Of a stretch of DNA of 35,027 nt, positions 787 through 35,027 are shown one piece after another. This stretch comes from a virus. Taxonomy: Duplodnaviria > Caudoviricetes. The translations under genes and the position numbers were made by a program. The stretch is from the IMG/VR virus record IMGVR_UViG_3300016472_000211, positions 1 to 35,027 of that record. One strand, given 5' to 3'. Below the pieces are notes generated by a model that saw nothing but the letters and a program-made list of their open reading frames with translations, had not been told where the DNA came from and did no database searches. Numbering within the stretch: the stretch's first letter is position 1; the number at the start of each line of letters is the position of its first letter.

Positions 787-1637
787 AGTAGTCCCTCCGT
801 CACGACCCGTGGGGACGCCACGGGCTCTCCGCTCTGGTATGCCGCGCTCGGCTGGCGCTCGACTCGCCGCACTCGCTGCTCGGGCTCGCCCGCTGCTACT
901 GCGGCCACGACTGGACGCAGGTACGCGATGGTCAGGTCACCCTGGCACCGCTCCGACGCGCGCCGGATGGCCTCGGTCATCGCCTCATGGCCATGAGCCG
1001 TCACCATCGTCGCGAGACTTTGCACCGTGGCCGGGGATACCTGCATCGCCTGTCGCCCGCTCTGCGTGCGGCGGAATGCCTCGACCACAGCAGCGAGCCC
1101 GTCAGGCGGCGGCGGGGGCTGAAGCGGCGCAGGCTCAGCGCGCGCGCGCGACGTAGTACCGTCCACCTCTACTAGGACACTGTCCTGTATGTCCTGTCCT
1201 GTATGTCCTGTCCTGTCAGGCGTTACGTTGCGTTGTTCGCCGTTACGTAACGTTACGTCGCCGTTACGTAACGGTGCGTAACCGTTACGCACGGGTTCGT
1301 TCGCGGCGTCTCTGGCCTGTCGATTGCGCTCGCGGAACGCTCGCTGGCGCTCCGAGTTGCTCGGGTCGGGCTGGTGCTCTGACCATCGCGGGGTCGTCCA
1401 TCCCCCATCGCACTCGACGAGCATCCCGACGGCGCGCAGTCCGCTAATCGACCTCGCGACCGTGGACTCGTCCATCTGCCACAGGTCCGAGATGACCACC
1501 GGGTCCAGATCGTCATCCGTCGCGATGCCGTTCCCACGCTTCAACGCGCAGAGCACCGCAGGCCACACGGACACAGCCCGCGCACGCCTGAGCCGGCCGT
1601 CGGCATGGCAGTCCGTATCCAGCCGCACCCAGGTCAT
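783..1637 (-). CDS. Phage replication initiator (replisome organiser / lambda O-like)
   Basis: N-terminus W-V-R-L-D with an HTH-like region, basic segment NSERQRAFRER, repeat-encoded linker, helical C-terminal domain. Lies between an HTH gene and a DnaC-like gene. Confidence 0.75.
   Translation of the reverse strand: MTWVRLDTDCHADGRLRRARAVSVWPAVLCALKRGNGIATDDDLDPVVISDLWQMDESTVARSISGLRAVGMLVECDGGWTTPRWSEHQPDPSNSERQRAFRERNRQARDAANEPVRNGYAPLRNGDVTLRNGEQRNVTPDRTGHTGQDIQDSVLVEVDGTTSRARAEPAPLQPPPPPDGLAAVVEAFRRTQSGRQAMQVSPATVQSLATMVTAHGHEAMTEAIRRASERCQGDLTIAYLRPVVAAVAAGEPEQRVRRVERQPSAAYQSGEPVASPRVVTEGLL
1181..1290. repeat. Probable replication-origin iterons inside the initiator gene
   Basis: TGTCCTGTATGTCC x2 (1181-1208) plus further TGTCC units. 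CGTTACG occurs five times. TCGCCGTTACGTAACG at 1237-1252 and 1258-1273 (21-bp period) contains the palindrome CGTTACGTAACG. Confidence 0.65.
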
Positions 1638-1840
1638 GGCCGACGCTCCAGCATCGCGATCAGCTCGTGGACGTCCAGCTCGAGGACCTCGGCGAGCCGA
1701 GGCACGTGCCGGGCCGCAGGGAGTACCTTGCCGCGCTGCCAGTTACTGACCGCTGCGACGCTGACGCCGATGTCCTGAGCCAGGTGCCCGATGGTGATGC
1801 CACGGGCCATGCAGATGTATCTGATGTGTTCCTTGAGCAT
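1634..1840 (-). CDS. XRE/Cro-CI family HTH regulator
   Basis: 68 aa with pattern GITIGHLAQDIGVSVAAVSNWQRGKVLP...LAEVL. Confidence 0.9.
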   Translation of the reverse strand: MLKEHIRYICMARGITIGHLAQDIGVSVAAVSNWQRGKVLPAARHVPRLAEVLELDVHELIAMLERRP

Positions 1841-1877: not shown

Positions 1878-1928
1878 GAAAAAAAAGTAAAAAATAGTAT
1901 AGACATCGAGCCAGCGCTGTGCCACTAT
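1878..1928 (+). promoter_or_regulatory. Sigma70-type rightward promoter with A-tract UP element
   Basis: A-rich tract, TAGACA (1900-1905), 17 nt, CACTAT (1923-1928). Followed by hairpin CAGCGACGC/GCGCCGCTG. A related copy lies at 3125-3183. Confidence 0.6.
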
Positions 1929-1978
1929 CCACTCATCAGCGACGCAATTCCGCGCCGCTGAAACCCGGAGGAAGTAGG

Positions 1979-2143
1979 ATGAACTACGCACACCCCAGCA
2001 CCATGACCATCGCCCAGATTGAGCGCAGCATCAAACGCGCAACGTCGGCCGCGAAGATGGCCGCGCTGGACGGCCGATACTCTGACCAGACCCGCCACCT
2101 GCGCCGCATCTACCGTCTGGAGTGCGAGCTGGAGCGCCGCTAA
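1979..2143 (+). CDS. Small basic hypothetical protein (54 aa)
   Basis: ATG at 1979 with GGAGG at 1967-1971; first gene after the rightward promoter. Confidence 0.7.
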   Translation: MNYAHPSTMTIAQIERSIKRATSAAKMAALDGRYSDQTRHLRRIYRLECELERR

Positions 2144-2196
2144 CCCACTGACGAGGCCCCGGCGGGGGCCGAAACGCCGAGAGGCGTCTGGGACGC
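2144..2196 (+). ncRNA. Hammerhead ribozyme, type I (HHR1)
   Basis: Stem I CCCA(2144-47)/UGGG(2189-92); core CUGACGA(2148-54); stem II GGCCCC-GGCG-GGGGCC; GAAA(2171-74); stem III CGCC-GAGA-GGCG. Cleavage triplet GUC, cut after C2188. Confidence 0.9.
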
Positions 2197-2220
2197 ATGT
2201 TGCGCCACAATGGAGGACGA

Positions 2221-3126
2221 ATGGAACGAAAAGACTACATCGGCGGAACGGACGTGTCGGCGATCCTCGGTCTCAATAGCTACTCGACCATCGGCGAGGT
2301 CTGGCGCAGGAAGCGCGGCCTCGATGGCGAGGTCGAGGCCAACGAGCGCATGCGATGGGGCCTGCTGCTGGAGCCGGTCATCCTCGCCGAAACAGAGGCC
2401 CGCCTCGGCGTCGTCGGAGAACGGCCTGGGCTGATCCAGCATCCGTTCATCGAGCATCTGGCCGGCACGCCCGACCTGGTGTACCAGCGCGACGGTGAGT
2501 GCGTGGTCGTCGACGCGAAATGGAGCAAGGTGCGCGGCCTGGCCGCCGACGGCACCATCGCCGACGTCGACAATGGGAGCGTGCCCGGGTCGTGGTGGTG
2601 CCAGCTGCATCATTACGCCTGGCTGGTCGAGGAGACTCGCGGAGTGCCCTGCCGCCTCGGCCAGATTGCGGCGCTGACGCCCGATGGGCTGCGTATCATC
2701 GACGTGCCGATCGACATCGCCTGGTATCGGGAGTCTGTCTTGCCGCGACTGGATGCGTTCTGGGCCTCGGTGCAGGACGGCATCGAGCCCAGCCTGCCCG
2801 AGCCGGTCAAGGTTACGCCGCCGCCAGCGCTCGACGGCATCGACGACGCCGTCGCCGACTACCTGGCCGCGTCGGCTGCGATTGACGAGGCCGAGCAGAT
2901 GAAAGCCTCGGCTAAAGCCCGCATCGAGGAGGCCATAGCTGCCGCTGGTCATCCGGGCAAGTCGACTGCAGGAGGAGCGACCATCAGCTACATCGTCACC
3001 AAGGGCCGCGTCAGCCTCGACAGCAAGCGCCTGGAGGCCGACAACCCCGAGCTGTTCGCGTCGTACAGCAAGGTCGGGGCCTCGTTCTCGTCGATTCGCG
3101 TATTCGCCAAAGCTGAAAAAAGATGA
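2221..3126 (+). CDS. YqaJ-family (lambda exonuclease-like) recombination nuclease
   Basis: Motifs IGGTDVSAILGLNSY, WG..LEP.I, GTPD, DAK (E/D-x-K), QLHHY. GGAGG at 2212-2216. Confidence 0.9.
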   Translation: MERKDYIGGTDVSAILGLNSYSTIGEVWRRKRGLDGEVEANERMRWGLLLEPVILAETEARLGVVGERPGLIQHPFIEHLAGTPDLVYQRDGECVVVDAKWSKVRGLAADGTIADVDNGSVPGSWWCQLHHYAWLVEETRGVPCRLGQIAALTPDGLRIIDVPIDIAWYRESVLPRLDAFWASVQDGIEPSLPEPVKVTPPPALDGIDDAVADYLAASAAIDEAEQMKASAKARIEEAIAAAGHPGKSTAGGATISYIVTKGRVSLDSKRLEADNPELFASYSKVGASFSSIRVFAKAEKR

Positions 3127-3164
3127 AAAACGATATAGACTTCGGCGATGAGTGGTAGCACTAC
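3125..3164 (+). promoter_or_regulatory. Second copy of the rightward promoter
   Basis: A-tract, TAGACT (3136-3141), 17 nt, CACTAC (3159-3164). Shares TATAGAC.TCG and CACTA.CCAC.CA...GC.ACGCAAT with the 1891-1948 region. Confidence 0.55.
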
Positions 3165-3196
3165 CCACCCACGGCAACGCAATATCTCGGTCCTGA

Positions 3197-3249
3197 CCCA
3201 CTGATGAGTGCCCGGCAGGGGACGAAACACCGACAGGTGTATGGGATGC
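3197..3249 (+). ncRNA. Hammerhead ribozyme, type I (HHR2)
   Basis: Stem I CCCA(3197-3200)/UGGG(3242-45); core CUGAUGA(3201-07); stem II GUGCCC-GGCA-GGGGAC with one G.G mismatch; GAAA(3224-27); stem III CACC-GACA-GGUG. Triplet GUA, cut after A3241. Confidence 0.88.
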
Positions 3250-3283
3250 ACGGCGCATGGTGCGCCACACCACAGGAGGATAG

Positions 3284-4255
3284 ATGAGTAATGATTTGAC
3301 GCTGGTCCGCCGGACCATCAGCGACCTCAGCAGCGATTTCCAGGGCTCGGCACTGTTGCCGAAGCACTTGCGCAACCCGGCAGACATGGCACTGGTCATG
3401 CACATGGGTGACGTTCTCGGCATCGATCCGCGACAGGCGATCTGGTCGATGCACGTCATCGACGGCAAACCGAACATGAGCGCCGACCTGATGGCGGCAG
3501 TCTGCTCGCGCTCTCCGCTGTGCGAGTACCTGATGCCGACCGTGATGACGCCGACGCGCGTGGAGTACGCCGCGAAGCGGCGCGGCTGGCCGGCAGAGGT
3601 ACGCATGTCGTTCACCATGGAGGACGCGCAGCGCGCCGGACTCGCGGGTCGGGATAACTGGCGGAAGTACCCGATGGCGATGCTGAAGGCCCGCTGTCTC
3701 GCCATGATTTGCCGAGCGACCTGGCCGGACCTGCTGGCTGGCGTCTACGATCCGGACGAGCTTGCGCCGGCGTCAGCGTCTGAGTCCCCGGTGCGCGTCG
3801 AGCCGAGCCGAGCCGAGCCGAGCCGACTGGAGCCGACTCGGGCCGACTCTGACCTGGTCATCGAGGTCGGATCAGGAGCGTCCATCAAGGCGCAGGTCGC
3901 CGCACAGAAGCCGAAGCGCCGCGTCACCCAGGCACCGACGCCTGAGCCTGTCGTGGTCGAGCCGGCTGTCGAGCCCGACCAGGCCATCGTGGTCGAGCCG
4001 GTTGTCGAGCCCGAGCCCGAGCCCGACTATCGCGCCGACGTGCGGTCCAGTCTGCGTCGCATCGGCGCGACCATGACCGACCTCCTGGCCTACGCCGAGA
4101 ACGCCCTGGGGCGCCCTGTGGGGCCTCCCGACACCTGGTCCGTAGCTCAGGCGCGGTTCATCGCTCAGAAGCTGTACAACGGCTGGGCAAGCGGCCTGGC
4201 CGCGTGGATTAGCCAGCCGCCGAGCGACATCGACGCCGACCAGCTCCCCGAGTAA
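3284..4255 (+). CDS. recT: RecT/Red-beta-like single-strand annealing protein
   Basis: LGIDPRQAIWSMHVIDGKPNMSA...FTMEDAQRAGL...NWRKYPMAMLKARC...WPDLLAGVYDPDE with a Pro/Glu-rich linker. Paired with the YqaJ-type nuclease; AGGAGG RBS. Confidence 0.82.
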   Translation: MSNDLTLVRRTISDLSSDFQGSALLPKHLRNPADMALVMHMGDVLGIDPRQAIWSMHVIDGKPNMSADLMAAVCSRSPLCEYLMPTVMTPTRVEYAAKRRGWPAEVRMSFTMEDAQRAGLAGRDNWRKYPMAMLKARCLAMICRATWPDLLAGVYDPDELAPASASESPVRVEPSRAEPSRLEPTRADSDLVIEVGSGASIKAQVAAQKPKRRVTQAPTPEPVVVEPAVEPDQAIVVEPVVEPEPEPDYRADVRSSLRRIGATMTDLLAYAENALGRPVGPPDTWSVAQARFIAQKLYNGWASGLAAWISQPPSDIDADQLPE

Positions 4256-4312
4256 CCCGCCCCTGCCCTCCCAGGGGTCGAGCCCGATCCGTCGGCGGGT
4301 AGTCCGACGTTG

Positions 4313-4355
4313 TGCCGCCACGGGATACGCCCGTTCGACTCGGGCAGCGGCATCA
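4313..4355 (+). ncRNA. tRNA-like minihelix (acceptor stem plus T arm; no D stem or anticodon arm)
   Basis: UGCCGCC(4313-19)/AGCGGCA(4346-52) pair at 6 of 7 positions. T arm GCCCG-UUCGACU-CGGGC (4329-4345). 9-nt linker ACGGGAUAC. Ends in UCA, immediately followed by GGAGG. Confidence 0.55.
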
Positions 4356-4365
4356 GGAGGTAGAG

Positions 4366-4599
4366 ATGTACGGTGAGCGCATCATGTGGGCGCTGGTCCT
4401 CTACGCCGCCGGGTTCGCCTCGGCGGTCATCGTCGGCGCGCGAAAAGGCGAACAGGTGTCTGCGGGAGTGGCCGACGTGCTCGACACCTGCGACGAGCTC
4501 GCCCGCGCCGACCGGGTGGACTGCAAGCGATGCGTGCTGGCCGTGCCGCCTGGAGACGACCTGCGGGTCGCGCGGATGCCGCGGGCAGTCACCCCGTGA
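4366..4599 (+). CDS. Hypothetical membrane-anchored protein
   Basis: ATG after GGAGG (4356-60); N-terminal hydrophobic stretch WALVLYAAGFASAVIVGA. Confidence 0.65.
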   Translation: MYGERIMWALVLYAAGFASAVIVGARKGEQVSAGVADVLDTCDELARADRVDCKRCVLAVPPGDDLRVARMPRAVTP

Positions 4600-33084: not shown

Positions 33085-33105
33085 GGTGATTTCTTTCTTG
33101 GCTGT

Positions 33106-33156
33106 GGCCATCATCAGGCGCCGCATCACGGCGCGACGGGTTGCCCCGTTTCGGCC
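33106..33156 (-). ncRNA. Hammerhead ribozyme, type II (HHR3)
   Basis: Minus strand: GGCC-GAAA-CGGG-GCAA-CCCG-UC / GCGCCG-UGAUG-CGGCGC-CUGAUGA-U-GGCC. GUC triplet, cut after C at 33135; extra U between A9 and G10.1. Confidence 0.85.
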
Positions 33157-33158
33157 TG

Positions 33159-33341
33159 TTACATCCCGACGTGGGCCGCGACGATGTCCGTGATCATGCG
33201 CCGCGCGTCAGAATTGGTGAAATAGTGCAGCACGAGCTGCATATCGTCGGCCTTGTCAGGCTCTCCAGCCGCGCGGAGAGCCTTGATGCGGAGTTTCATC
33301 GTAGCCTTGAGGGCGGGAGGCATCGTCGGCTGCTTGTTCAT
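33159..33341 (-). CDS. Small hypothetical protein (60 aa)
   Basis: AAGGA upstream; its TAA lies 2 nt before HHR3. Confidence 0.7.
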   Translation of the reverse strand: MNKQPTMPPALKATMKLRIKALRAAGEPDKADDMQLVLHYFTNSDARRMITDIVAAHVGM

Positions 33342-33362
33342 CGTCCTTGCCTTTCGTCGGTG

Positions 33363-33430
33363 GGCGCTTCGTGCGCCGTTCATGTGCAAAGAATACCCGG
33401 GCCCTTCATCAAAGACAACAAGAAATTGTC
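33363..33430 (-). promoter_or_regulatory. Promoter cassette B: operator, sigma70 promoter, leader hairpin
   Basis: GACAA-N7-TTGTC (33414-33430); TTGTCT (33418-13), 17 nt, TATTCT (33395-90); hairpin GGCGC-ACGAA-GCGCC (33377-63). Confidence 0.75.
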
Positions 33431-33446
33431 ATGCCGGATACGATTC

Positions 33447-34398: not shown

Positions 34399-34416
34399 CT
34401 GGGCTCCTTTGTTCTG

Positions 34417-34484
34417 GGCGCTTCGTGCGCCGTTCATGAACAAAGAATATCAGCGACCCCGGCAGAAGACAACAATAACTTGTC
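34417..34484 (-). promoter_or_regulatory. Promoter cassette A: operator, sigma70 promoter, leader hairpin
   Basis: GACAA-N7-TTGTC (34468-34484); TTGTCT (34472-67), 17 nt, TATTCT (34449-44); hairpin GGCGC-ACGAA-GCGCC (34431-17). Confidence 0.75.
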
Positions 34485-35027
34485 ATGCCGATGTCGATTT
34501 CTCTGCGCCCACGAACGGCCGGCCCGTGATGCTGCCTGGCTGCACATGACGACCGACGGGCCAGATGGATTGCGCCGTGCACTCGGAGGCGAACCCGCTC
34601 CGAGGAGCGCATGACCTGTCCCGGCTGCCGCTACGCAGTCGCCGTGCCGGCCGCTCGCACGACACCAGGACTCCGCTGCGGACAGTCGTCCGCTCCGTCG
34701 TAGTCGCTCGGATGGATTGGCCCTGCGGCAGCGGAGTACCGGCCGCCACCCAGCGTTCGAATGCAGCCCGCGCCACCGCCCGATAGACGCGAGCGTCCCG
34801 GTACTGATTGTTCCACCTGTCCGACCTGGCAATCTTGATGGTCACCTGGCCGGGGCTGAGCGGCGAGTATCTGCAGATGTGCGAGCCGGTGCTGTCGAGC
34901 TCCAGGCCGGTCCTGGCTGCATGCCACTCGACCGCCAGCCGGTATGCGGCCGAGTACGCAATATCCAGCTGCCTGCATAGCGCGTCGAGCCGCGCAAACT
35001 CATCCGACGACGTCCGCATCTTCCACC
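34483..35027 (-). CDS. Ribbon-helix-helix-like DNA-binding protein (5' end outside the window or at 1-13)
   Basis: WKMRTSSDEFARLDALCRQLDIAYSAAYRLAV fits strand-helix-turn-helix; the frame is open to the window edge. Confidence 0.5.
   Translation of the reverse strand, partial: WKMRTSSDEFARLDALCRQLDIAYSAAYRLAVEWHAARTGLELDSTGSHICRYSPLSPGQVTIKIARSDRWNNQYRDARVYRAVARAAFERWVAAGTPLPQGQSIRATTTERTTVRSGVLVSCERPARRLRSGSRDRSCAPRSGFASECTAQSIWPVGRHVQPGSITGRPFVGAEKSTSA

Follow-up and report, generated by a model that had tools for sequence, protein, structure and literature searches.

The DNA analysed here, which we call the window, is a stretch of 35,027 nt that makes up the whole record of a virus. It carries tailed-phage genes (terminase, Mu-like portal and protease, capsid and tail fibre), and the best sequence matches of this phage come from freshwater metagenomes. 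Its rightward genes follow the order 54-aa ORF, YqaJ/RecE-like exonuclease and RecT-like annealase. A first hammerhead motif, HHR1, lies between the 54-aa ORF and the exonuclease gene, and a second, HHR2, lies ahead of the annealase gene (Table 1). Pfam and PHROG searches with the 54-aa ORF returned no match, and only two homologues of it were found, both near-identical.

Table 1. Features of the hammerhead locus in window coordinates
Feature	Position	Strand	Details
Cro/C1-type HTH gene	1634-1840		heads the leftward block; DnaC-like loader at the end of that block
P1, promoter-like hexamer pair	1900..1928 (1900-05, 1923-28; 17-nt spacer)	+	putative; after an A-rich tract; recognised from sequence and P2 homology
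54-aa ORF	1979..2143	+	stop codon abuts HHR1; optional among strains
HHR1, type I hammerhead	2144..2197	+	predicted cut 2188/2189; pseudoknot 2162-64 with 2194-96
Hairpin and Shine-Dalgarno after HHR1	2194..2216	+	hairpin 2194-97/2201-04 overlaps the tail; SD 2212-16
YqaJ/RecE-like recombination exonuclease gene	2221..3126	+	PF09588 E 1.2e-12; phrog_434 E 1.6e-46
P2, promoter-like copy of P1	3136..3164 (3136-41, 3159-64; 17-nt spacer)	+	putative; aligns with P1 and its leader
HHR2, type I hammerhead	3197..3250	+	predicted cut 3241/3242; pseudoknot 3215-17 with 3247-49; G.G mismatch 3210/3221
6-bp hairpin and Shine-Dalgarno after HHR2	3252..3279	+	hairpin 3252-57/3261-66; SD 3274-79
RecT-like single-strand annealing protein gene	3284..4255	+	phrog_561 E 8.4e-28

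Other stretches of the window are also structured or repeated. Iteron-like repeats at 1200-1290, made of 9-nt and 21-nt units that are partly palindromic, lie inside a 284-aa gene upstream of the DnaC-like loader, and are likely to be a replication origin within an initiator gene. Towards the right end, BLAST of L126 against the window revealed self-similar stretches (33105-33172, 33361-33436 and 34415-34490), with one 77-nt repeat at 83% identity and one 68-nt stretch locally repeated. A conserved structured spacer follows the RecT-like gene (window 4255-4367, + strand) and recurs in the relative L129 (4972-5085). It contains a first hairpin, in which four pairs are compensated between the two phages, then a second hairpin, and finally, just before a ribosome site, a tRNA-like end of 37 nt identical in both phages, with an acceptor-like stem and a T-arm and no D or anticodon arm. 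ARAGORN found no tRNA in the spacer, and Rfam nothing relevant. Pattern scans for it matched only the contig of L129, and other contigs in runs X5 and X6 match the spacer stretch with different flanks. We regard it as a candidate for a processing site, an attachment site or a family of small RNAs.

A type I hammerhead descriptor matched the window twice on the + strand and not once on the - strand, and found nothing in 300 dinucleotide shuffles. This result bears out the original prediction of two type I hammerheads with intact cores and a 4-bp stem I. Both copies show the full cores, CUGANGA and GAAA, around a three-way junction, and both have the type I topology, with stem I open and loops closing stems II and III. 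Stem I has 4 bp (2144-47/2189-92 in HHR1, 3197-3200/3242-45 in HHR2), stem III has 4 bp plus the core A-U, and the cleavage triplets, GUC in HHR1 and GUA in HHR2, both conform to NUH. Among 12 aligned sequences of the same geometry, the A15.1-U16.1 pair is A-U in all 12, and 96.3% of cells pair versus 80.2% after shuffling, all slid controls remaining under 39%. A covariance model built from these 12 sequences, HHR1 and HHR2 among them, found no further ribozyme of the kind in the window, the best remaining match having an E of 0.052. No Rfam family reached its gathering threshold anywhere in the window; RF00008 scores the two copies at 21.3 and 16.0 bits versus a gathering score of 48.5. A type III alternative fold of HHR1, which would draw on a second copy of the cleavage site further upstream, was seen in 1 of 170, in this phage alone, and was treated as chance.

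Stems I, II and III pair with covariation, the one exception being the G.G mismatch in stem II of HHR2. Stem III was said to have diverged with pairing kept (CGCC/GGCG versus CACC/GGUG), and it is indeed paired in both copies. The same was said of stem II, which is true of HHR1 and fails in HHR2, where G3210 faces G3221. Related strains in runs X4, X5 and X6 (three studies) have C at 3210 and so a C-G pair there, which makes the mismatch a peculiarity of this strain; the comparison covered 40 of 238 difference rows, so that HHR2 may differ at further positions. In related strains 90-95% alike, HHR1 differs only at loop III (2180) and at the spacer nucleotide (2193). Both motifs are predicted from sequence to be real type I hammerheads.

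HHR1 and HHR2 differ from each other at 10 of 54 positions. Six of these differences form three compensated pairs, one each in stem II, stem III and the pseudoknot; three others fall at variable unpaired sites, and the last breaks a pair. Random trials produced at least three compensations and no more than one break in 31 of 200,000 cases, and a compensated pseudoknot pair alone in 9,839 of 200,000 (4.9%). Thus, the comparison of the two copies supports selection on the fold and does not by itself establish the pseudoknot.

Further information about the pseudoknot was obtained from homologues. In both copies loop II is complementary to the 3' tail, which starts one nucleotide past stem I, confirming that the two segments can pair at the same spacing, as first proposed. 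Homologues were collected with three patterns over viral and metagenome contigs, and the viral-contig search and its companions yielded at least 260 loci with at least 173 distinct type I hammerheads. In pairing counts that, here and below, ignore kinship among the sequences, at least three Watson-Crick pairs were present in 85 of 138 distinct loop/tail combinations among the matches listed (mean 53.7 and maximum 73 in 5,000 permutations), and runs of at least four in 45 (mean 14.2, maximum 28). We also used a subset in which loop and tail were both free in the search and each stem-loop II sequence was entered once (n=92, among the matches listed). GC occupies tail positions +3/+4 in 33 of the 43 stem-loops whose loop II contains GC, and in 1 of the 49 whose loop II does not. 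The complement of tail +3/+4 is present in loop II in 63 of the 92 (permutation mean 31.8, maximum 47), with 11 different dinucleotides represented. A second loop class, to which 60 of 86 entries belong, shows more pairing than permuted sets at three of its four positions, with counts of 33, 31 and 29 versus 26.9, 20.6 and 14.8. The two inner pairs give the predicted loop II/tail pseudoknot good support.

The outer pair behaves differently. Its change from G-C to A-U between the copies had been offered as compensatory evidence, with covariation in homologues as the check, and this check succeeds for the inner pairs and fails for the outer one. An independent set was drawn from metagenome contigs with the window's exact geometry and the outer pair left free; it comprised 138 matches, 108 of them distinct, of which 39 were dropped for failing the stem tests and 69 were intact. 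The outer pair is formed in 57 of these 69 versus 55.6 expected (p=0.30), and after collapsing in 43 of 53 versus 41.1 (p=0.18). Outer-pair covariation as proof of the pseudoknot was discarded, being unsupported in this independent set. The 69 homologues have G-U in 30 cases, A-U in 15, G-C in 12, A.A in 6, A.C in 5 and G.A in 1. Purines occupy the loop side in every case and U predominates on the tail side, so that the pairing follows from composition. In the viral set, which is smaller, redundant and includes the near-identical phage L042, 38 of 51 centred GGCR loops lie in the window's register, with a Fisher p of 0.0025 for the outer pair (G-C 19, G-U 8, A-U 5, A.A 4, A.C 1 and G.A 1 among the matches listed). 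The pair is open in 3 of the 12 aligned sequences. Moreover, the HHR1 tail also forms one arm of the downstream hairpin, and the repeat comparison places 7 extra nucleotides in HHR2 ahead of the homologous hairpin, so that the two tails may differ in origin. The outer pair (G-C versus A-U) is consequently the weakest evidence for the pseudoknot, and the conclusion that both copies are under selection as hammerheads in which loop II contacts the 3' tail is supported, though by other evidence.

The predicted contact is best read as two firm pairs plus one loose pair, probably with a non-canonical contact involving the purine at tail +5. A rival reading goes further: the ribozymes would be active, and loop II and the tail would meet mostly through non-canonical contacts, in a two-pair kiss flanked by contacts of the G.A type, with no 3-bp helix. 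In 42 of the 69 homologues the outer pair is either G-U or a mismatch, and the tail is always a purine at +5 (A 63, G 6) and A at +1 in 59 of 69, which suggests sequence-specific contacts that go further than Watson-Crick pairing. However, the inner pairs vary on both sides in the wider family, where loops UGGC, UGAC, UGGU and UGAU are accompanied by matching tails. We hold this reading to be a serious, although not the favoured, possibility.

The two hammerheads are embedded in similar surroundings. The 110 nt before the 54-aa ORF align with the 110 nt before HHR2 (65 of 114 columns identical), and the aligned regions share the A-rich tract, two hexamers 17 nt apart and the leader. Relatives have T at 3164, as in the second hexamer of P1. 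As a consensus sigma-70 scan called neither P1 nor P2, the term promoter is used here in a putative sense. Contigs of runs X6, X8 and X16 (three studies) join the P1 leader directly to 2134, without the 54-aa ORF, and the joint falls on an 8-nt direct repeat (1952-59 and 2134-41). In these strains both genes are preceded by the same layout: promoter-like site, leader, hammerhead, hairpin and ribosome site. A unit of this composition, with a 30-nt leader, was likely duplicated to give one copy per gene. Within the P1 leader (window 1925-1985, + strand), a long hairpin spans the ribosome site that serves the 54-aa ORF (z -2.33, 2 of 200 shuffles). Run X18, probably DNA, listed no piece over either ribozyme and no back-joint.

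The relative L129 is 75% identical over the exonuclease gene; it has no hammerhead core, both cassettes are absent, and its exonuclease stop overlaps the annealase start. The cassettes are thus dispensable in the wider lineage, since L129 does without either. In the window, an ATGA is found at the exonuclease stop (3123-26), and the ATG over this stop opens an 11-codon frame across P2 (3123-3158, + strand). The equivalent ATG overlap in L129 is the start of the annealase gene. The ATGA overlap fits an insertion of the second cassette at this point, of which it is possibly the scar; loss in L129 is the alternative.

From 0 to 5 nt past the stop of an ORF of at least 40 codons begin 102 of 166 family hammerheads, versus 928 of 33,200 random sites (2.8%); given a stop triplet, the figures are 102 of 120 versus 14%. 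The distance from the cut to a start led by a Shine-Dalgarno sequence has a median of 32 nt in the family (119 of 166), and the corresponding leaders here measure 32 nt (HHR1) and 42 nt (HHR2). Two or more hammerheads are held by 39 of 184 loci with a hammerhead, overlapping loci being counted apart. Five other phage contigs (L008, L026, L033, L066 and L173) carry arrays in which 4 to 6 type I hammerheads lie within about 4.5 kb and different loop/tail pairs are adjacent. A 5'-terminal hairpin on the cleavage product was rejected as a family trait (19 of 68 versus 30% in shuffled sequences). A search of cultured phages gave one weak match, within a gene (E 0.4), and genome contigs gave 8 matches by sequence pattern alone, all in MAGs, with no cultured host found among them. 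Two pattern searches, of viral and of metagenome contigs, each led to an estimate of about 220 stored stretches for the subfamily. The locus points to an abundant phage subfamily missed by Rfam thresholds.

We propose that the type I hammerheads self-cleave the early transcript before the exonuclease and annealase genes, and that the short loop II/tail pseudoknot braces the 4-bp stem I, a reading that we consider likely with some confidence. Stem I and the pseudoknot would form as the tail is transcribed and keep stems I and II parallel. The cuts, after C2188 and A3241, would release 5'-OH messages in which the leader carries the hairpin and the ribosome site. Each recombination gene would then have a 5' end that stays the same regardless of the sequence before it, and this end likely gives the gene a stability and a translation of its own; the likely role is to divide the early transcript into pieces of about one gene each, with 5'-OH ends. 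Such ends resist 5'-monophosphate-dependent decay in many bacteria. RtcB, for its part, joins 5'-OH and 2',3'-cyclic phosphate ends. Hammerhead cleavage leaves the cyclic phosphate upstream and the 5'-OH downstream, according to a review (Weinberg et al. 2019, PMC6765202).

In nested folding with no pseudoknot term, the hammerhead fold costs 0 to 2.8 kcal/mol relative to the most stable nested structure, and because the gap is so small, a small tertiary contact could decide the fold. Nested-only folding in context gives stem I a probability of 0.03 to 0.19, and for HHR2 this probability is near 0 during early elongation. The modelled energies would equally allow slow or partial cleavage. The same calculations place the HHR1 tail in the competing hairpin with a probability of 0.72 to 0.95, as would be expected if cleavage were conditional, the hairpin and a ribosome at the abutting stop competing with stem I and the pseudoknot, and HHR1 being a switch tied to translation of the upstream ORF. 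The frequent abutment of stop codons in the family (102 of 166) also favours such a switch. However, the 5'-terminal hairpin is not enriched on family products, HHR1 is kept in strains of three studies that have no upstream ORF, and HHR2 lies 70 nt after the stop of the nearest gene, and we find a switch unlikely.

We are more sceptical still that duplication and recombination have spread the cassettes as near-neutral passengers whose cleavage is of little importance to the phage. Their absence from L129 and the G.G mismatch tolerated in this strain would agree with that, but the compensated divergence between HHR1 and HHR2 and the constancy of HHR1 outside loop III and the spacer nucleotide speak against it. 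Least credible of all is a portable promoter-hammerhead-RBS cassette acting as a 5'-end insulator for each recombination gene, in which read-through transcripts are cut twice and the excised 1,053-nt exonuclease RNA is closed by a host RtcB-type ligase into a translated circle: its ends suit RtcB chemically, it contains a ribosome site and the whole gene, and paired hammerheads recur in the family (39 of 184 loci), but Perreault et al. sought spliced or circular products from such clusters and found none (PMC3088659), P2 within the fragment accounts for HHR2 without any pairing to HHR1, and the junction would rebuild a hammerhead with an outer A.C, the form of 5 of 69 natural members, and so would likely be recut.

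The locus offers a natural comparison between strains with and without the upstream ORF, one strain whose stem II has a mismatch, and a relative in which the same two genes are translationally coupled and the ribozymes are absent. The design of compact ribozymes could make use of the very small tertiary contact. What self-cleaving ribozymes do for the bacteria and phages that carry them is an open question, and the review by Weinberg et al. (2019, PMC6765202) describes the role of bacterial ribozymes as largely elusive, with mRNA processing as a suggestion.

Hammerheads of this kind have been described before. According to Perreault et al. (2011, PMC3088659), pseudoknots occur in all three hammerhead types, in about 40% of the set; pseudoknot mutants lose activity and compensatory changes rescue it, as tested on a 6-bp type II pseudoknot; and tandem or clustered hammerheads flank single prophage genes and cleave both in vitro and in E. 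coli. The locus studied here has in common with them the core, the type I topology, the stem I/II pseudoknot and several copies flanking phage genes, and the processing of polycistronic RNA proposed there matches the role proposed here. The same text looks for a loop II complementary to the stem I tail with covariation, which we find at the inner pairs, and its scoring rule asks for a pseudoknot of at least 4 bp, whereas here 3 pairs are possible and 2 are firm, the flanking G of the pseudoknot facing A in both copies. In Rfam clan CL00010 (RF00008 and relatives), the catalytic core and the stem II/III junction match RF00008 in part, with both copies below the gathering score.

Eckert et al. 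(2023, PMC10085705) reported self-cleaving ribozymes enriched near Mu-like phage genes and near other ribozymes. Similarly, the portal and protease genes of this phage are Mu-like and its two ribozymes lie 1 kb apart; unlike in that report, the neighbours are recombination genes and there is no permuted topology. Type I hammerheads in bacterial and phage DNA are also mentioned by Lopez-Galiano et al. (2026). A literature search, with most subscription papers outside it, retrieved no paper on a short-pseudoknot subfamily or on a promoter-ribozyme cassette.

In summary, the locus is predicted to be a member of the prophage type I hammerheads, falling short only of the 4-bp pseudoknot rule and of the Rfam thresholds, and its architecture and genomic setting were already published in 2011 (PMC3088659). 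The duplicated promoter-leader-ribozyme-RBS unit and the abutment to stop codons were not found described in the accessible part of Perreault et al. (2011). What the locus adds to the known systems are these duplicated cassettes, each joining a promoter-like site, a leader, a ribozyme and a ribosome site, and absent from a 75%-identical relative.
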